Shown here: piece by piece, positions 1 through 64,000 of the stretch | How positions within the stretch are numbered: the stretch's first letter is position 1 | Layout of the letters: every line of letters starts with the position of its first letter | From: Blastocatellia bacterium | GTDB lineage: Bacteria; Acidobacteriota; Blastocatellia; RBC074 | DNA length: 64,000 nt | Assembly: GCA_046154695.1 (NCBI GenBank) | Contig: JBJXFI010000413.1 | Span: 9,823 to 73,822 of the forward strand | Reading direction: 5' to 3' | Translations under genes and position numbers: made by a program | The notes under the pieces: model-generated | Databases searched by the model: none | Told to the model about the DNA's origin: nothing | Seen by the model: the letters and a program-made list of their open reading frames with translations, nothing else

Positions 1-52
1 GTCTGGTGGAGTCGGCACAAGCTGGACAGCTTGTGCCACTCTTTCCAAACCC
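1..52. repeat. 3' end of composite palindromic repeat (GGCACAAGCTGGACAGCTTGTGCCAC + TTTCCAAAC tail); same element as at 12104-12322 and 63675-64000
   Basis: bases 14-40 form the perfect palindrome GGCACAAGCTGGACAGCTTGTGCC; flanking tggtgga..gcc..cactctttccaaac matches copies near 63841-63890. Confidence 0.7.
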
Positions 53-4728: not shown

Positions 4729-4826
4729 GGATAACGGAACAGCCGGAAATAACGGAACAAACGAAACAAGACCGGGAAGAGTCCGTTTGTTCCGTTATTT
4801 CCGGCTGTTTCGTGCTCTCTTCTTTT
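4729..4826. repeat. inverted-repeat element family S (GGAAATAACGGAACAAACG ... CGTTTGTTCCGTTATTTCC); second copy at 38563-38645
   Basis: perfect 19-bp arms around a 23-nt loop; 85 percent identical truncated copy upstream of wzm. Confidence 0.75.
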
Positions 4827-12010: not shown

Positions 12011-12020
12011 TTGAATAAAA

Positions 12021-12103
12021 TCGTTTGGGGTTCCGCCTTCAGGGGGCCGGCCGTTCGCAAAGCCCGGCGGCCTGAAGGCGGAACTCCAAACGATTTCCGA
12101 GGA
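12021..12103. repeat. REP-like nested palindrome (R-family) copy R1: TCGTTTGGGGTTCCGCCTTCAGG ... CCTGAAGGCGGAACTCCAAACGA
   Basis: 22-bp arms, inner CCGCCTTCAGGCGG itself palindromic; copies at 19910, 32419, 44677, 47561 plus half-copies 38662 and 63661. Confidence 0.85.
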
Positions 12104-12322
12104 GCTTTCATGTCGCGTGGCGACGCCCGGAAACAATGAAATGCATGGTGGCACAAGCTGTCCAGCTTGTGCCTGGTGTAAGGTGCGCGTGAAGAGTCCG
12201 GCGGGGCGGGCGCCTGAAGGGGTCTCGTTCGAGGCCCGGACTTTTTCTGGTAGTGTCTGCCAGACACTCTCGGATGCGGCACAAGCTGGACAGCTTGTGC
12301 CACTTTTTCCGAGGAGCGGTTC
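12104..12322. repeat. composite palindromic repeat (P-family) bounded by two 24-bp palindromes GGCACAAGCTGTCCAGCTTGTGCC / GGCACAAGCTGGACAGCTTGTGCCAC, with internal terminator-like module GGGGTCTCGTTCGAGGCCCGGACTTTTTCT
   Basis: about 80 percent identical to 63675-63888 and to window start; ends 1 bp before ATG of 12323 gene and contributes its GAGGAG RBS. Confidence 0.8.
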
Positions 12323-14271: not shown

Positions 14272-15342
<1,071 letters not shown>

Positions 15343-15343
15343 C

Positions 15344-15398
15344 GGGCAAATCAAAAGGCAAAAGGAGGCCTCCCCTTTTGCCTTTTGATTTGCCTGTT
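15344..15398. terminator. bidirectional terminator hairpin between convergent fbaB and radical-SAM gene
   Basis: GGGCAAATCAAAAGGCAAAAGGAGG / CCTCCCCTTTTGCCTTTTGATTTGCC, about 24-bp stem built from tandem CAAAAGG units. Confidence 0.6.
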
Positions 15399-18427: not shown

Positions 18428-18466
18428 ATCAGACCCGAAAAAAATGAGACACGCGCCTTTGCAGAA

Positions 18467-18537
18467 CCGGGAGCGTCAGCGACCGGAGCCTTGATTCGCC
18501 GCCGCTTGCGCAATATGCCGGTCGCTAACGCTCCCGG
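18467..18537. terminator. long hairpin between convergent holB and PQQ-propeller gene
   Basis: CCGGGAGCGTCAGCGACCGG / CCGGTCGCTAACGCTCCCGG, 20-bp stem with 1 mismatch and 31-nt loop. Confidence 0.45.
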
Positions 18538-18576
18538 CACTGCGTCAATCTCTTTGGCTCTTTGGGCCTGATTAGC

Positions 18577-19851: not shown

Positions 19852-19909
19852 CTTCAATCCCTCGTGGCAAAATGTCGGTGGAAAAACGGCCGCATCTTAC
19901 CATGCAATG

Positions 19910-19964
19910 TTCGGAGTTCCGCCTTCAGGCGGTCAGTCTTCGCCAAAAAGGCGGAACTCCAAAC
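19910..19964. repeat. REP-like R-family copy R2 (TTCGGAGTTCCGCCTTCAGGCGG ... GGCGGAACTCCAAAC)
   Basis: shares arms with R1; immediately followed by CCGAGGAGC SD-like sequence and ATG 19977. Confidence 0.8.
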
Positions 19965-19976
19965 CCGAGGAGCGAA

Positions 19977-20321
19977 ATGTCACAATCGAGAATCGATGCC
20001 TTCCTCATTATGACGAAGACCCAGCCCGAGAACGAGATGATCTGGTACGGGCTGGCGAATGAATACACGAAGCTCTCGGCATGGCCGGAAGCGATCGACG
20101 CGCTCCGCAATGTGATCCGGATCAAGCCGGATTACACATCGGCTTATCAGTTGCTCGGTTCCGCGCTGTTGAGCCAGGGCCAGGCCGAGGAGGCGCGCCG
20201 CGTGTGGACGGAAGGCCTCGCCGTCGCGGACCGAACCGGCGCCTGGAAGGCCCGGCAGCATATGGAAGGGTTGCTGGCCGGAGCGGCGAATGAGGGCGAG
20301 GCCGGATTTTGCGAGGAATAA
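19977..20321 (+). CDS. TPR repeat protein (small)
   Basis: TPR-like helical repeats (WYGLANEY...AIDALRNVIRIKPDYTSAYQLLGSALLSQGQAEEA); upstream part of track ORF is repeat translation. Confidence 0.65.
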   Translation: MSQSRIDAFLIMTKTQPENEMIWYGLANEYTKLSAWPEAIDALRNVIRIKPDYTSAYQLLGSALLSQGQAEEARRVWTEGLAVADRTGAWKARQHMEGLLAGAANEGEAGFCEE

Positions 20322-23774: not shown

Positions 23775-23790
23775 CGTCCGTGTGGAGTGC

Positions 23791-23940
23791 CGCGGCTTGA
23801 CGCAGCTTTCCTATCCCCTGCGTTATCGGCGAACTTCGAGCGAGAGCGGTCCCTGCGCGATGCGATAACGACAGGGACCCGTACAGAACAAGAGTGCGAT
23901 TGCGTCGGGGGCTTGGAAAGCTGCGTCAAGCCGCAGCACT
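23791..23940. other. 150-nt structured inverted-repeat element (28-bp outer stem, nested inner stem)
   Basis: GGAGTGCCGCGGCTTGACGCAGCTTTCC (23791-23818) pairs GGAAAGCTGCGTCAAGCCGCAGCACTCC (23913-23940), 1 mismatch; inner CCTGCGTTATCG / CGATAACGACAGG. Confidence 0.6.
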
Positions 23941-23971
23941 CCAAGCGCTCCGCGTGTTTTTAACGGTCTGA

Positions 23972-31007: not shown

Positions 31008-31022
31008 TGTCGTAATTCCTTA

Positions 31023-31105
31023 AAAATCGTCCGCGAAGTTAAACGAAGAAACACGAAGGTTGAACCATTCCTTCGTGTTTCTTCGTTTAACTTCGTGGAC
31101 GATTT

Positions 31106-31106
<1 letters not shown>
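31023..31106. terminator. about 36-bp-stem hairpin (tandem ACGAAG units) between convergent pepA and Wzy-like gene
   Basis: AAAATCGTCCGCGAAGTTAAACGAAGAAACACGAAGG / CCTTCGTGTTTCTTCGTTTAACTTCGTGGACGATTTT, 1 G-U. Confidence 0.65.
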
Positions 31107-32359
<1,253 letters not shown>

Positions 32360-32418
32360 CAGCAGGATCAGAAGGGCGGCGTAAATAATCTTTTCGAGAA
32401 TAGGGGCTCCTCAGAAAC

Positions 32419-32484
32419 TGTTTGGAGTTCCGCCTTCAGGCGGTCGGTCTCGCGCCAACCGCCTGAAGGCGGAACTCCGAACGG
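32419..32484. repeat. REP-like R-family copy R3
   Basis: TGTTTGGAGTTCCGCCTTCAGGCGG ... CCGCCTGAAGGCGGAACTCCGAACGG; minus-strand GAGGAGC SD-like sequence adjacent. Confidence 0.85.
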
Positions 32485-32521
32485 TCTTCATCATTTTTCC
32501 GGGCGCCGCAGGCCGCCCTCG

Positions 32522-38562: not shown

Positions 38563-38645
38563 CGGGATAGCGGAACAGACGGAAATAACGGAACAAACGA
38601 AACAAGACCAGGAAGAGACCGTTTATTCCGTGCTCTCTTCTTTCG
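38563..38645. repeat. S-family repeat, truncated copy
   Basis: GGGATAGCGGAACAGACGGAAATAACGGAACAAACGAAACAAGACCAGGAAGAGACCGTTTATTCCGTGCTCTCTTC. Confidence 0.7.
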
Positions 38646-38661
38646 TTAACTTAACGTCATT

Positions 38662-38686
38662 GGCCTGAAGGCGGGACTCCGAACGG
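38662..38686. repeat. R-family half element (3' arm only) just upstream of wzm start
   Basis: GGCCTGAAGGCGGGACTCCGAACGG. Confidence 0.6.
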
Positions 38687-38702
38687 GAGCGCCATCACCG
38701 AA

Positions 38703-43623: not shown

Positions 43624-44718
43624 CAAATCACTTTTGTCTTGCCCATGTACCTCGATGTTCCGTCGGGCGGGTTCAAGGTGGTGTATGAATACGCGAACCG
43701 CCTGCAGGCCCGCGGCCATCGCGTGACGCTGATTCATCCGCGGACGATCGAACGCGCGCCGGGCGCGGTGGAAGCGTTCAAGCGGTTCGCATGGCGTTAC
43801 AAGATCCGCCTGAGGGATCGCCCGCTGGTTCCGTGGTTTCCGCTTCATCCGGGGGTGCGGGCGCTGCTGGCTCCCGATCTGGGCGCGGAGTCGATTCCAC
43901 CGGGAGACGCGATCTTCGCCACGGCTTTTGAAACCTCCTTCCCGGTCTATGCATGTCCGGCCGACCGCGGGCGGAAGTTTTACCTGATCCAATCCTACGA
44001 AGAATGGAACGGGCCGAAAGAGAAGGTGCGGGAGAGCTGGCGCCTGCCGCTGCGAAAGGTGGTCGTCTCGCGCAGGTTGATGGCGCACGCCCGCGAACTC
44101 GGCGTGGGCGAAAGCACGGTGCTGATTCCGATCGGGCTGGATTTTTCACAATTCCGGGCAACGACGCCGATCGATCGACGGCCCACGCTCCGCGTCGGGA
44201 TGGTGGCGCACCCGAACGAGCTCAAGGGGATGCGCGACGGCATCGCGGCGCTGGAGATGGCGCGGGCGGAGATCCCGGATCTGCGGGCCGTGCTTTTCGG
44301 AACGCCGCCGCGCGATGCGGCCATCCCGGCCTGGATGGATTATCTGCAACGCCCCGCGCCGGAGCGGATGGTCTCGCTCCACAATTCCTGCCGGATCTTT
44401 CTGCATCCGAGCCGGGCGGAAGGCTGGGGGCTGCCCGCGGCCGAGGCGATGGCTTGCGGCTGCGCCCTCGTATCGGCCGATAACGGCGGCGTGCACGAGT
44501 TCGCCACGGATGAGGTGAGCGCGCTGATCGCGCCCATCAAATCGCCGCCGGAACTGGCGCGGCGCATCGTCCGGCTGCTTCGCGACGATGAGCTGCGGCA
44601 GCGCATCGCAAGGGCGGGCGCCGAACAGGTGGGGCAATTCACCTGGGACCGCGCCGTTGATCAATTGGAGCAATTGTTCGGAGTTCCGCCTTCAGGCGGA
44701 CTGACCATGGAGAAATAG
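43621..44718 (+). CDS. glycosyltransferase family 4 (GT-B)
   Basis: GGxxxxxxxxA N-terminal GT4 fold, EGWGLPAAEAMACG C-terminal motif; last 13 codons lie inside REP copy R4. Confidence 0.85.
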   Translation: MQITFVLPMYLDVPSGGFKVVYEYANRLQARGHRVTLIHPRTIERAPGAVEAFKRFAWRYKIRLRDRPLVPWFPLHPGVRALLAPDLGAESIPPGDAIFATAFETSFPVYACPADRGRKFYLIQSYEEWNGPKEKVRESWRLPLRKVVVSRRLMAHARELGVGESTVLIPIGLDFSQFRATTPIDRRPTLRVGMVAHPNELKGMRDGIAALEMARAEIPDLRAVLFGTPPRDAAIPAWMDYLQRPAPERMVSLHNSCRIFLHPSRAEGWGLPAAEAMACGCALVSADNGGVHEFATDEVSALIAPIKSPPELARRIVRLLRDDELRQRIARAGAEQVGQFTWDRAVDQLEQLFGVPPSGGLTMEK

Positions 44719-44747
44719 GTTCCGCCTGAAGACGGAACTCCAAACGG
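44677..44747. repeat. REP-like R-family copy R4, overlapping 3' end of GT4 gene and abutting next ATG
   Basis: TTCGGAGTTCCGCCTTCAGGCGG ... CCGCCTGAAGACGGAACTCCAAACGG. Confidence 0.85.
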
Positions 44748-47522: not shown

Positions 47523-47560
47523 CGAGTGGGAAGGGAACAGCGTATGAGAAGAGATCCCTC

Positions 47561-47632
47561 GTTCGGGGTTCCGCCTTCAGGCGGAATTGTCGCAATGAAA
47601 AATCGACCGCCTGAAGGCGGAACTCCGAACGG
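47561..47632. repeat. REP-like R-family copy R5 at the 5' end of the hypothetical secreted-protein gene
   Basis: GTTCGGGGTTCCGCCTTCAGGCGG ... CCGCCTGAAGGCGGAACTCCGAACGG; ATG 47595 lies in the loop. Confidence 0.85.
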
Positions 47633-53310: not shown

Positions 53311-53383
53311 CAACCACGGGGAGCACGGGGAACACGGGGAAATAGAGGTTCTTTCCCCGTGTTCCCCGTGCTTCCCGTGGTTG
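53311..53383 (+). terminator. 32-bp-stem hairpin built from CACGGGGA octamer repeats, followed by ATTTTCT
   Basis: CAACCACGGGGAGCACGGGGAACACGGGGAAA / TTTCCCCGTGTTCCCCGTGCTTCCCGTGGTTG (1 G-U). Confidence 0.65.
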
Positions 53384-56340: not shown

Positions 56341-58482
56341 ATGAAGCAAGTGACACAGAACGTTCGCACGGGCGTGCTGAAGGTGGACGAGGTGCCGGAG
56401 ACGATCTGCAAGCGCGGCGGGGTGCTCGTGGACAATGCCACGTCGCTGATCAGCGCGGGGACCGAGAAGATGGCGGTCGATTTCGCGCGGAAGTCGCTGG
56501 CGGGAAAGGCGCGGGAGCGGCCGGATCTGGTTCGCCAGGTGCTGCTGAAACTGAAGCGGGACGGGTTGACGAACACGATCAACACCGTGCGAGCGCGGCT
56601 GGAGTCGCCGTTGGCGCTTGGATACAGTTGCGCGGGTGTCGTGCGGGAGATCGGCGCGGGGGCGGAGGAGTTCCGCGTCGGGGATCGCGTGGCGTGCGCC
56701 GGGATGAATTACGCCTCGCATGCCGAGACGGTCTTCGTTCCGAAGAATCTGGCGGTGCGGATTCCGGAGGGCGTGAGCTTCGACGAGGGGGCCTTCGTCA
56801 CGCTGGGAGCGATCGCGCTGCAGGGCGTGCGAACGGCGGAGGTCAGGCTGGGCGATGCGGCGGCGGTGATCGGGCTGGGGCTGCTCGGCCAGTTGACGGC
56901 GCAGATTCTGAAGGCGGCCGGATGCCGCGTCATCGGAATCGACCTCGAGCAATCGAAGATCGACCTTGCCCGCGAGTTCGGCGCCGATGAGGCCGTGCTC
57001 CGCGGCGATGACGTCGAGCGGCGCATCGCGGCATTCACCGATGGGCACGGGGTCGATGCCATCATCGTCGCCGCGGCGGCCGACACCAATGATCCGATCG
57101 AGCTTGCGGGCGTCATCGCCCGCGATCGCGCGATCGTCTCGATGGTCGGCGCGGTGCGAATGGAGATCCCGCGAAAGATCTATTACGAAAAGGAGCTGCA
57201 GCTTCGCCTCTCGCGCTCGTACGGGCCGGGCCGGTACGATGCGATCTACGAAGAGCAGGGCGTCGATTACCCGATCGGGTATGTGCGCTGGACCGAGCGT
57301 AGAAATATGCAGGAGTTTCTGCGCCTGGTCGCGGCGCGCGCGGTGCGGCTCGCTCCGCTGATCACGCATCGCTTTCCGATCGAGGAAGCCGGGACGGCCT
57401 ACGAGATCATCACCGGCAAGCGGCGCGAGCCTTATATGGCCGTTTTGCTGCAATACGCCGCCGAGGCGCCCGGCTCGAAGGTCGTGGCGCTAAGCGCGCG
57501 CGCCGCGTCCGGAGAGATCCGGCTGGGCGTGATCGGCGCGGGAAATTTCGCGAAGAGCGTGCTGCTGCCCCGGCTCGCGAAATCGCGCGAGGTCCGGCTC
57601 GCCGGCATCGCGACCGCGACCGGAAGAAATGCCCGGGCCATCGGCGAGCAGTATGGATTCGGCTTCTGCACGACCGATTATCGGGAACTGCTCTCGCGCG
57701 AAGAGGTCAATACCATCCTCATCGCCACGCGCCACGACACGCACGCCCGTATGACGGCCGAGAGCCTGCGCGCGGGCAAGAACGTCTTCGTGGAGAAGCC
57801 GCTTGCCATCGACCAGGAAGGGTTGGAGGAGGTTCGGGCCGCCGTGAATGCCGCCGGAGAAACGGCGCCGCGCCTGATGGTCGGTTTCAACCGGCGGTTC
57901 TCGCCCCTCTCCAACGAGCTGAAGTCCTTTTTCGCCGGCGCCGGTCCGCTGGCCGTCACCTACCGCGTCAACGCCGGCGAGATCCCGAAAGAGAGCTGGG
58001 TTCATGCCGAGGAGGGCGGCGGGCGCATCGTCGGTGAAGTCTGCCACTTCGTCGATTACCTGCAATTCCTGACCGGGTCCGATCCTGTGGAGGTCTTCGC
58101 CCTCGCCGGCGCCTCGGGCGTCGATACGCTGAGCATTGTCCTCAAATTCAGCGACGGCTCGATCGGCGGCATCAACTACTTCGCGACCGGAGATCGAGGC
58201 TTTCCGAAAGAACGGGTTGAAGTTTACGGCGGCGGACGCGCCGCCGTTCTCGACGATTTTCGCTCGCTCGAAACGTGGCGCGACGGAAAACGGGCCGTCA
58301 CCCGCCGCGGTTCGCAGGAGAAGGGCTTCGATCAGGAGCTTGCCGCCTTCCTCACGGCGATCCGCTCCGGCCGGGAGATGCCCATCTCCTGGCAGAGCCT
58401 GTTTCTGACGACGGTGACGACGCTACGGATCGAGGAATCGCTGAGAAATGGTTGCCGGTTGCCGGTCGCCGGGTGTCAGTAA
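56341..58482 (+). CDS. bi-domain oxidoreductase (N-terminal zinc-type alcohol dehydrogenase/MDR domain fused to C-terminal Gfo/Idh/MocA NAD-binding oxidoreductase)
   Basis: MDR-like N-half (GxGxxG VIGLGLLG); C-half RLGVIGAGNFAKSVLLPRL Rossmann + Gfo/Idh/MocA C-domain; ATG 56341 (track GTG 56311 lies in the hairpin). Confidence 0.8.
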   Translation: MKQVTQNVRTGVLKVDEVPETICKRGGVLVDNATSLISAGTEKMAVDFARKSLAGKARERPDLVRQVLLKLKRDGLTNTINTVRARLESPLALGYSCAGVVREIGAGAEEFRVGDRVACAGMNYASHAETVFVPKNLAVRIPEGVSFDEGAFVTLGAIALQGVRTAEVRLGDAAAVIGLGLLGQLTAQILKAAGCRVIGIDLEQSKIDLAREFGADEAVLRGDDVERRIAAFTDGHGVDAIIVAAAADTNDPIELAGVIARDRAIVSMVGAVRMEIPRKIYYEKELQLRLSRSYGPGRYDAIYEEQGVDYPIGYVRWTERRNMQEFLRLVAARAVRLAPLITHRFPIEEAGTAYEIITGKRREPYMAVLLQYAAEAPGSKVVALSARAASGEIRLGVIGAGNFAKSVLLPRLAKSREVRLAGIATATGRNARAIGEQYGFGFCTTDYRELLSREEVNTILIATRHDTHARMTAESLRAGKNVFVEKPLAIDQEGLEEVRAAVNAAGETAPRLMVGFNRRFSPLSNELKSFFAGAGPLAVTYRVNAGEIPKESWVHAEEGGGRIVGEVCHFVDYLQFLTGSDPVEVFALAGASGVDTLSIVLKFSDGSIGGINYFATGDRGFPKERVEVYGGGRAAVLDDFRSLETWRDGKRAVTRRGSQEKGFDQELAAFLTAIRSGREMPISWQSLFLTTVTTLRIEESLRNGCRLPVAGCQ

Positions 58483-58512
58483 CCGGCAACCGGCGACCGG
58501 CTACCGCCAACC
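58446..58512 (+). terminator. hairpin of GGTTGCC heptamer repeats spanning the stop codon of the oxidoreductase
   Basis: GGTTGCCGGTTGCCGGTCGCCGG (coding) / CCGGCAACCGGCGACCGGC (post-stop). Confidence 0.5.
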
Positions 58513-63069: not shown

Positions 63070-63489
63070 CTATCGATGCATCGGAATGAAATCCGGATCA
63101 TCCTGATGTTCCCGCTCCCACACCAGAAAGTCGTAATACCCGCACTGGTTCTCTTCGGGGTACTGGCGGCAGATCGCCGGGCGGTGCTCATAGATCGTGC
63201 ATTGCCGCCTCTCCGGGTGCAGAAATTGGCACGCGCTCTTGAAGACGGTATCCTTGCGGTGCCGCAGCACATCGCGCTTATAGCTCTTGATGTGCTTCGT
63301 GAACTTCTTCCTCGCCTGTTCGAAGTTCAACCCGAAGCGCTTGCCCAGCCGCCTGATGTCCACTTTTGTCACGGGAATCCAGTCGTACGTGCAGCAGTAC
63401 GCCGGGCATTTCGTGCAGTCATATTTCAATTTGGATTTCTTCCCCGCGCCGTTGGCGGATTGCAGCACCGGGAGTTCTTTAGTTGCCAT
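63070..63489 (-). CDS. YkgJ-family cysteine-cluster protein (putative Zn/Fe-binding, UPF0153)
   Basis: CTKCPAYCC ... C ... C ... CRQYP cysteine pattern; 139 aa. Confidence 0.65.
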
Positions 63490-63660
63490 AGAATCCGATC
63501 GACCTTCGTGAAGTTAACATGCGAGTGATTCTTATCATTATCGTAGATTGACGGCAACACCGGCTCGGAAAAAATGTCCGAGTGATAAAGAGACGCAGGA
63601 GACCCCATAGCTGACAAGCAGACAGGCCGCGGGTACAATCGGCCGAGATTTCAGAGCGGC

Positions 63661-64000
63661 GGGAAACTCCAAACAATTTCCGAGAAGCCGTCATGTCGCG
63701 TGACGACGCCCGGAGACAATGAAAAGCATGGTGGCACAAGCTGTCCAGCTTGTGCCGAGTGTGTGTGTGGGCGTGAAGAGTGCGTCGCGTCGCGCGGCGG
63801 AAGGGGTCTCGTTCGAGGCCCGGTCTTTTTCCGGGAGTGTCTGGTGGATGCGGCACAAGCTGGACAGCTTGTGCCACATTTTCCAAAGCATGGTGGCACA
63901 AGCTGTCCAGCTTGTGCTGAGTGTGTGTGTGGGCGTGAAGAGTGCGTCGCGTCGCGCGGCGGAAGGGGTCTCGTTCGAGGCCCGGTCTTTTTCCGGGAGT
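63661..64000. repeat. R-family half arm followed by two tandem units (about 162 bp each) of the composite palindromic P-family repeat, running off the window end
   Basis: GGGAAACTCCAAAC...CATGGTGGCACAAGCTGTCCAGCTTGTGCC...GGCACAAGCTGGACAGCTTGTGCCAC repeated at 63727 and 63889; the 92-nt segment GAGTGTGTGTGTGGGCGTGAAGAGTGCGTCGCG...GTCTTTTTCCGGGAGT (63757-63848 = 63919-64000) is repeated exactly. Confidence 0.85.

Follow-up and report, generated by a model that had tools for sequence, protein, structure and literature searches.

What is the palindromic repeat that recurs between genes in a 64,000-nt stretch of DNA from a Blastocatellia bacterium (GenBank assembly GCA_046154695.1, contig JBJXFI010000413.1, positions 9,823 to 73,822; this whole stretch is hereafter the window)? 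We use P as the label for this palindromic repeat element and R as the label for a second, separate hairpin family. Our analysis demonstrates that P was recently gained at several intergenic sites and was locally amplified into a head-to-tail pair. With a confidence somewhat above even, we consider P to be a lineage-specific noncoding palindromic intergenic repeat, recently gained and amplified, that resembles repetitive extragenic palindromic (REP) sequences, REP doublets forming hairpins (REPINs), and terminal inverted repeat (TIR) repeats.

An earlier note on this DNA had described a repeated composite element, and the repetition is real and nonrandom. The 24-nt motif GGCACAAGCTG(TC or GA)CAGCTTGTGCC occurred six times (at positions 14, 12150, 12278, 63733, 63852, and 63895, the last with one mismatch), and the core GGGGTCTCGTTCGAGGCCCGG occurred three times (at 12219, 63803, and 63965); shuffled sequence, which served as the background for both, yielded zero occurrences of either. 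Together, these matches define three intergenic loci with four units (12082-12317, 63665-64000, and 1-49), all on the + orientation. Copy A (at 12 kb) and copy B (at 63.7 kb) aligned with 84% identity in blastn, from 12082/63665 to 12310/63884, and 196 of 223 aligned columns were identical in MAFFT, with 14 gap columns; both values are close to the ~80% identity estimated previously. As the earlier note had also proposed, the element is present at the window start, where positions 1-49 (copy D) represent the 3′ end of a P unit with 92% identity to 63839-63887 based on the repeat finder and 97% identity to 12277-12310 of copy A. The near-identical head-to-tail units at the window end were likewise recovered: 63723-63838 and 63885-64000 are identical at 115 of 116 positions (99% based on the repeat finder) with a spacing of 162, such that 1.7 units of period 162 are visible within 63665-64000 up to the window end. 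Tandem Repeats Finder did not report this pair (copies B and C) because just 1.7 units fit before the window end.

From left to right, a full copy of P consists of the end of an R arm (which reads AACTCCAAAC.ATTTCCGAG.AGC), a 42-nt leader, a left TIR, a core of 93-104 nt, a right TIR, and a T-rich tail (Table 1). The bounding 24-mers had been described as perfect palindromes; instead, each has 11-nt arms flanking an asymmetric TC or GA, and the left motif is the exact reverse complement of the right one, and the motifs form the inner parts of 26-27-nt TIRs with the sequence GTGGCACAAGCTGTCCAGCTTGTGCC(G). The TIR pairs are 100% complementary and lie 93-104 nt apart, and each TIR is also self-complementary; a single 24-27-nt palindromic unit is predicted to fold alone into a 10-bp stem with a 4-nt loop (-16.3 kcal/mol). 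The core contains a conserved hairpin, GGGTCTC-GTTC-GAGGCCC (7-bp stem, five GC pairs), and then GG(T/A)CTTTTTC. With the GGTCTTTTTC that follows it, this hairpin was scored as terminator-like in every unit in a consensus scan, in agreement with the earlier suggestion that the internal module resembles an intrinsic terminator. The right TIR of copy A followed by ACTTTTTCC was also scored as terminator-like. In predicted folds of both strands, the long stem formed by the two TIRs dominates (z about -6) and is favored over two local hairpins by 19-23 kcal/mol. At the tandem junction, the right TIR of copy B and the left TIR of copy C are predicted to form a 27-bp hairpin with a 15-nt loop.

Table 1. 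Coordinates of P copies, their parts, and adjoining features in the window
Feature	Position	Strand	Remarks
Copy D, 3′ end of P unit	1..49	+	Pre-TIR segment, right TIR (14-39), and tail CTCTTTCCAAAC; left part lies off the window
R hairpin	12018..12096	.	38-nt arms, 87% complementary; directly after the stop codon (12010) of the Ser/Thr kinase gene
12-nt direct repeat, left copy TTTCCGAGGAGC	12094..12105	+	Is the R-arm end; exact match to 12306-12317
Copy A leader	12106..12147	+	37/42 identical to 63689-63730 (alignment)
Copy A mini-ORF	12110-12139	+	9 codons, within leader; not conserved as coding
Copy A left TIR, GTGGCACAAGCTGTCCAGCTTGTGCC	12148..12173	+	Inverted-repeat search
Copy A core	12174..12277	+	Variable block; terminator-like hairpin 12220-12237, then GGACTTTTTC; A-specific palindrome 12252-12268
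Copy A right TIR	12278..12303	+	Followed by CTTTTT; terminator-like as well
12-nt direct repeat, right copy TTTCCGAGGAGC	12306..12317	+	Carries GAGGAG (Shine-Dalgarno, SD) 6 nt before the dcyD-like ATG (12323)
Sigma-70-like promoter match	63611..63639	+	CTGACA-17-TACAAT, 10/12; upstream of copy B, outside the repeat; consensus match only
Solo R right-arm remnant and TTTCCGAGAAGC	63665..63688	+	22/24 identical to 12082-12105; homology to copy A begins here
Copy B leader	63689..63730	+	Contains mini-ORF 63693-63722; alignment
Copy B proper	63731..63877	+	Left TIR 63731-63757, 93-nt core, right TIR 63851-63877; predicted folds contain the 27-bp TIR stem
Copy B core hairpin	63804-63821	+	Followed by GGTCTTTTTC; terminator-like in consensus scan
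Tandem tail/junction ATTTTCCAAAGCATG	63878..63892	+	Between units B and C
Copy C, second tandem unit	63893..64000	+	Ended by the window edge; 115/116 identical to copy B
Copy C left TIR	63893-63919	+	One C>T change at 63918
Copy C hairpin	63966-63983	+	Terminator-like

Differences between copies A and B are distributed unevenly. Across both TIRs, all 52 positions are identical, and the core hairpin block is identical at 31 of 33 positions; the leader matches at 37 of 42 positions and the variable block at 32 of 44 (73%). Comparing the TIRs (52/52) with the rest of the alignment (144/171) gave p = 0.001 in Fisher's test. Such a pattern would be expected if the ends and the hairpin were the functional parts of P. 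Copy A also contains, at 12252-12268, a 10-nt insertion relative to the other copies that creates a local palindrome (AGTGTCTG-C-CAGACACT); the inserted bases seem to duplicate those before them in inverted orientation, as template switching might produce.

In one rival reading, P would be a classical MITE (miniature inverted-repeat transposable element), that is, an insertion sequence (IS) deletion derivative moved by a DDE transposase at the 26-27-bp TIRs and leaving a target-site duplication. P has perfect TIRs of that length, measures 147-156 bp from TIR to TIR, contains no open reading frame (ORF), and folds into a long stem-loop, as MITEs do (definition in PMC3184786); close relatives differ in its presence or absence, and an exact 12-nt direct repeat (TTTCCGAGGAGC, at 12094 and 12306) brackets the leader and unit of copy A. 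However, the conserved leader separates that repeat from the left TIR: the repeat lies 42 nt outside it, and no direct repeat abuts the TIR edges of copy A. The sequences just outside the TIRs (..GCATG and (A/T)(T/C)TTTCC..) are conserved among copies rather than being duplications of each other, whereas a MITE in the strict sense is directly flanked at its TIRs by a target-site duplication, which differs from one insertion to the next, and the window contains neither a parent IS nor a transposase. We therefore regard a MITE, one of two identities that the earlier note had raised, as unlikely. Copies A and B also remain homologous for 66 nt leftward of the left TIR, through the R-arm remnant and leader, which could reflect either a spreading unit larger than the TIR-to-TIR segment or homing to R-arm ends.

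A coding function was considered and rejected. The 162-nt period corresponds to 54 codons, and none of the six frames is interrupted in the pair; however, copy A contains stops in two forward frames, and its indels shift the frame relative to copy B. Using a six-frame composite translation of the P unit as a protein query, we identified no protein and no called ORFs over other copies. Within the leader mini-ORF, both codon differences between copies A and B are nonsynonymous. One of the frames that are open throughout the tandem pair (63727-64000) reads as a Cys-rich peptide, HGGTSCPACAECVCGREEC.

The second identity raised by the earlier note was a small RNA; in this case, P would be a small RNA gene or a cis-acting leader RNA on the + strand, ended by the internal terminator-like hairpin. 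Every unit does contain a GC-rich hairpin and then a T run, all units are oriented like the downstream genes, and copy B has the sigma-70-like promoter match (Table 1) 92 nt upstream of its left TIR. In addition, a G-C pair becomes G-U at one position of the stem in CCGG(N7)C(C/T)GG, a substitution that only + strand RNA tolerates. Copy A, however, has no promoter-like site and lies behind another hairpin, and the block between the conserved modules, at 73% identity, has different predicted folds in A and B. Two independent sequences provided no usable covariation. Rfam returned no match to P at gathering thresholds; below threshold, only generic hairpin matches to miRNA models appeared. Furthermore, P is missing from all relatives examined. 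A small RNA thus seems quite improbable. A + strand transcript of the P unit would form very stable hairpins, including two intrinsic-terminator-like structures, and the probable role of P is that of a transcript-end or insulator element, not that of a gene.

Comparison with five related Blastocatellia assemblies showed that P is absent from their orthologous sites. R is likewise missing from orthologous sites in related assemblies. The gap between the kinase gene and the D-cysteine-desulfhydrase-like (dcyD-like) gene, which contains copy A in the window, instead holds an inverted array of GGTAGTC heptamers in GCA_033763135.1, a GCCAGTA-type array in an ENA contig, and a 118-codon gene in a Logan assembly. 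Upstream of the GAF/sigma-54 activator gene, where copy D is located in the window, P is lacking in three relatives, which instead carry a DUF481 gene and retain the sigma-54 promoter. An nhmmer profile of the P unit and pattern scans likewise identified nothing in ~100 kb of the relatives' DNA. Based on this absence, P represents a recent lineage-specific gain and not a conserved regulatory element of the adjacent genes. At orthologous intergenic sites, close relatives (90-97% protein identity) carry wholly different hairpin families: inverted GGTAGTC or GCCAGTA heptamer arrays and a CACGAAG-type hairpin in the relatives (e.g., L002 9700-9960 and 18990-19065, and L003 9830-9990) versus R and P in the window (12018-12317 and 19904-19965). 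Hairpins turn over while the intergenic site persists.

The retained sigma-54 promoter bears on a regulatory alternative, in which the palindromes are operator or enhancer sites (upstream activating sequences, UAS) bound by a dimeric DNA-binding protein, with pairs 119-128 bp apart that would allow looping and with the window-start copy serving the sigma-54 promoter of the NifA-like activator. The arms are identical in all six palindromes despite diverged surroundings, and the center of the palindrome at 14-37 lies ~85 nt upstream of the sigma-54 promoter (109-124), which is a usual spacing for an enhancer. Yet relatives retain this promoter without the palindrome (TGGCCAGCGAGTTGCG, TGGCAGCCTATTTGCA, and TGGCAGCAGACTTGCA in three relatives, compared with TGGCCAGCCAGTTGCT in the window). 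No such palindrome accompanies the second sigma-54 promoter (1933-1948, TGGCAAGCCAGTTGCT), which precedes the glutamine synthetase III gene, and no sigma-54 promoter follows the other P copies. Moreover, tandem amplification and linkage to another repeat family are traits of selfish repeats and not of operators. We consider an operator or UAS function very improbable.

No full sigma-54 site fits P itself, and the earlier note likewise could not fit one. A sigma-54 promoter within the TIR was rejected on spacing, because GG and GC are 10 nt apart in TGGCAC-N5-TTGC but 9 nt apart in the right motif; the left motif has CC where GC is needed. The only true sites in the window are those at 109 and 1933. 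A NifA-type UAS (TGT-N10-ACA) was rejected because the palindrome reads ACA-N12-TGT, and P motifs also did not fit the consensus of an integron attC or dif site. A ACAAAAATGT-like motif recurs near both sigma-54 promoters. The two promoters together suggest an autoregulated nitrogen-assimilation circuit.

The tandem pair at 63.7-64.0 kb could in principle be an assembly artefact, with a single real unit. The source is a contig from a metagenome-assembled genome (MAG), near-identical repeats of ~160 bp are hard to resolve with short reads, and the second unit is cut by the window end. On the other hand, a single base sets the two units apart (C at 63756, T at 63918), and the junction GTGCCACATTTTCCAAAGCATGGTGGCAC is found just once; because junctions of this sort are not fabricated by graph assemblers, reads containing it should exist. 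Clusters of REPINs in tandem also occur naturally (PMC3116915). We thus consider an artefact improbable.

Read on from position 64000, position 1 of the window falls exactly in phase with the 162-nt unit. A circular replicon was rejected nonetheless, based on the DUF481 gene upstream of the activator gene in three relatives and the housekeeping genes in the window. The window-start fragment differs from unit B at 4 of 49 positions, whereas unit C differs from B at 1 of 116 (p = 0.03); this higher divergence suggests that the fragment is a separate copy, and it weighs against a circle.

P is linked to R in part. Within the 64 kb, R occurs at six sites, one of them a solo arm (12018-12096, 19904-19965, 32417-32485, 38658-38692, 44676-44745, and 47560-47631), with arms of the form ..GTTTGGAGTTCCGCCTTCAGG / CCTGAAGGCGGAACTCCAAAC..; it is almost absent from ~100 kb of the relatives' DNA. 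The earlier note had treated R and P as one composite element. This holds for two of the four units, given the full R hairpin at the 12-kb copy and the solo remnant at the first 63.7-kb unit; the second tandem unit has no R, and for the window-start copy the left side is beyond the window.

The earlier note had also proposed that copy A supplies the ribosome-binding site (RBS) of the dcyD-like gene, and here the evidence was unfavorable. The 12-mer with GAGGAG also ends the R arm at 12094, and it is not conserved at the other two right ends, where the tails of units B and D read CCAAAGC and CCAAACC and contain no SD. The dcyD RBS is therefore better seen as a native or target sequence that was duplicated than as a conserved gift of P. 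Three R copies end in (TTT)C(C/T)GAGGAGC, which is the SD of the next gene in two cases. A similar sequence, CCGAGGAGC, follows another R arm at about 19964-19977, before the gene start at 19977; a relative carries TTTCCGAAGGAG at the corresponding gene without any R. This gene encodes a TPR protein, and the start of its ORF (19872-20321) is probably the ATG at 19977 (114 aa, as in the relative) rather than 19872; with this start, the R hairpin there is intergenic rather than within the ORF.

The window contains further long intergenic inverted repeats with arms of 24-40 nt that are unrelated to R and P (31020-31109, 23783-23943, 53311-53383, 58450-58512, 15342-15397, and 18461-18543), and another unrelated repeat at 4734-4813 has a second copy at 38565-38631. 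They mostly begin within a few dozen bases of stop codons, and some consist of tandem heptamers or nonamers (CACGGGGAA, GGTTGCC). Because the window is rich in other intergenic hairpins, including R, P is one of several hairpin families in this genome.

Taken together, the paired inverted palindrome, the intergenic sites, the constrained ends, the presence or absence among relatives, the tandem amplification, and the linkage to R led us to read P as a member of the REP/REPIN/TIR-repeat class. Its most likely route of spread would be mobilization in trans by a hairpin-recognizing transposase encoded elsewhere in the genome, the best candidate being an IS200/IS605-type tyrosine transposase of the REP-associated (RAYT) or TIR-repeat-associated (TIRYT) kind. 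P may preferentially land in, or travel with, the end of an R-family hairpin, and tandem copies could then arise by replication slippage or by unequal recombination between identical palindromes.

Several observations weigh against this class assignment and the proposed transcript-end role. Just three P loci (four units) were seen, within the 64-kb window. Using Pfam, we found no transposase or integrase domains among the 46 ORFs in the window, and no RAYT or TIRYT could be linked to the palindrome. Classical REPs carry a GTAG or CGTC tag that is missing from the P palindromes: none of GTAG, CTAC, CGTC, and GACG was found at the palindrome flanks (GCATG/GTGGCAC.. and ..GTGCCAC/(A/T)(T/C)TT). 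The homology of copies A and B beyond the left TIR suggests that the spreading unit is not simply TIR-to-TIR. In addition, of the three loci, at least one and probably a second are situated between divergent (5′-5′) genes, where a terminator is not needed. At copy A, just 22-90 nt separate the terminator-like hairpins from the dcyD start downstream, which leaves no space for a promoter; if termination were strong here, dcyD would be silenced, so strong termination is doubtful.

Wider searches identified one candidate outside the lineage. We did not find the P palindrome in JGI metagenome contigs and IMG/VR, blastn of P against plasmids and phages returned nothing, and searches of metagenomes with the core motif yielded chance matches only, mostly in ABC-ATPase coding sequence (GVSFEA). 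Among GTDB genomes, the palindrome matched at least one locus, in a Ktedonobacteraceae (Chloroflexota) MAG (DASTKE010000775.1, L001 1378-1447). This locus is a perfect hairpin with 34-nt arms between convergent genes; its apex, ATGGTGGCACAAGCTG-TT-CAGCTTGTGCCACCAT, shares ATGGTGGCACAAGCTG..CAGCTTGTGCCAC with the P palindrome. The match may reflect distant relatedness but is possibly due to chance, because only half of the bases in a palindrome are independent and hairpins abound between genes. A bolder reading of the same apex (ATGGTGGCACAAGCTG-NN-CAGCTTGTGCCAC) would take the P palindrome as the recognition hairpin of an undescribed Y1/RAYT-like transposase system in Blastocatellia, with a built-in terminator module, homing to a second hairpin family, and spread across phyla; we give this little credence.

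The best protein matches of the window genes are Blastocatellia MAG proteins, one of them 100% identical (MFN0088057.1), and the window is chromosomal DNA of a soil bacterium, represented by a Blastocatellia (Acidobacteriota) MAG. Its genes encode a GAF/sigma-54 activator, glutamine synthetase III, MacB-type transporters, a Ser/Thr kinase, a D-cysteine-desulfhydrase-like PLP enzyme, DNA polymerase III delta', UvrD, MiaB, and SmpB, and they include a large exopolysaccharide cluster. Copy A sits between the kinase gene and the dcyD-like gene, copies B and C are upstream of a divergent CxxCxxCC-domain gene (63070-63489, minus strand), and copy D is upstream of the GAF/sigma-54 activator gene.

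P opens no new question; its value is for annotation. In this lineage, it explains possible contig breaks or misassembly here, possible spurious ORF calls (six open frames over the tandem pair, whereas copy A breaks the frames), and complete intergenic differences between close relatives. If a cognate transposase were found, P would offer a clean perfect-palindrome system for hairpin-directed transposition.

Among known systems, the Correia elements of Neisseria (CREE/NEMIS) and other MITEs resemble P in length (~100-160 bp), in TIRs of roughly 26 bp, and in intergenic locations, often 5′ of genes; they form long RNA hairpins and may carry functional motifs (PMC3184786). Correia elements, however, have a TA duplication at the TIR edges, whereas P has none, and the conservation of P passes the left TIR. 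A dispersed repeat named in PMC3184786 has a core that resembles an intrinsic terminator, as P does; the two have no sequence relationship, and the palindromic TIRs are an addition in P.

TIR repeats that accompany TIRYT transposases (Di Nocera et al. 2013, PMC3733652) resemble P in form, with inverted repeats >20 nt that are in some cases self-complementary, as in a family of Stenotrophomonas maltophilia. Like P, they occur as singles, dimers, and clusters, including self-complementary TIR repeats in the latter two arrangements, within moderately abundant families, and a distinct RAYT-like TIRYT transposase group has been described in Acidobacteria (PMC3733652). In these systems, the TIRYT gene is flanked by the same TIRs; no TIRYT gene could be tied to the P palindrome. 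The GGGGWSAS motif of some TIR repeats is not in the P TIR; a 7/8 match (GGGGTCTC) is present in the core.

REPs and REPINs share features with P at the level of organization: short GC-rich palindromes (20-40 nt per unit in REPs) in inverted pairs, with spacers of tens to ~100 bases (PMC3116915, PMC3733652), that fold singly or as one long hairpin and are strictly extragenic. REP dimers have 20-100-bp spacers with small stem-loops (PMC3733652). REP/REPIN-RAYT systems are characterized by tens to hundreds of extragenic copies in a genome and by a RAYT (Y1 transposase) gene, present once, that the same palindromes flank; for P, the 64 kb analyzed contain three loci (four units), all intergenic. 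REP arrays with 72- and 112-bp spacings are known, REPINs insert into or beside other REPINs, and tandem REPIN clusters are a known natural arrangement (PMC3116915); correspondingly, P shares near-identical tandem arrays that include flanking sequence, insertion in or beside other repeat families, and variable presence among close relatives. Unlike REPs, for which a GTAG/CGTC tetranucleotide at the palindrome end is a feature (PMC3733652), P has no such tag; it also has perfect rather than imperfect stems, a 93-104-nt spacer that does not pair across itself, and a host in the class Blastocatellia of Acidobacteriota. P is thus ordinary in kind, and its host lineage adds an acidobacterial example to the REP/REPIN/TIR-repeat class.

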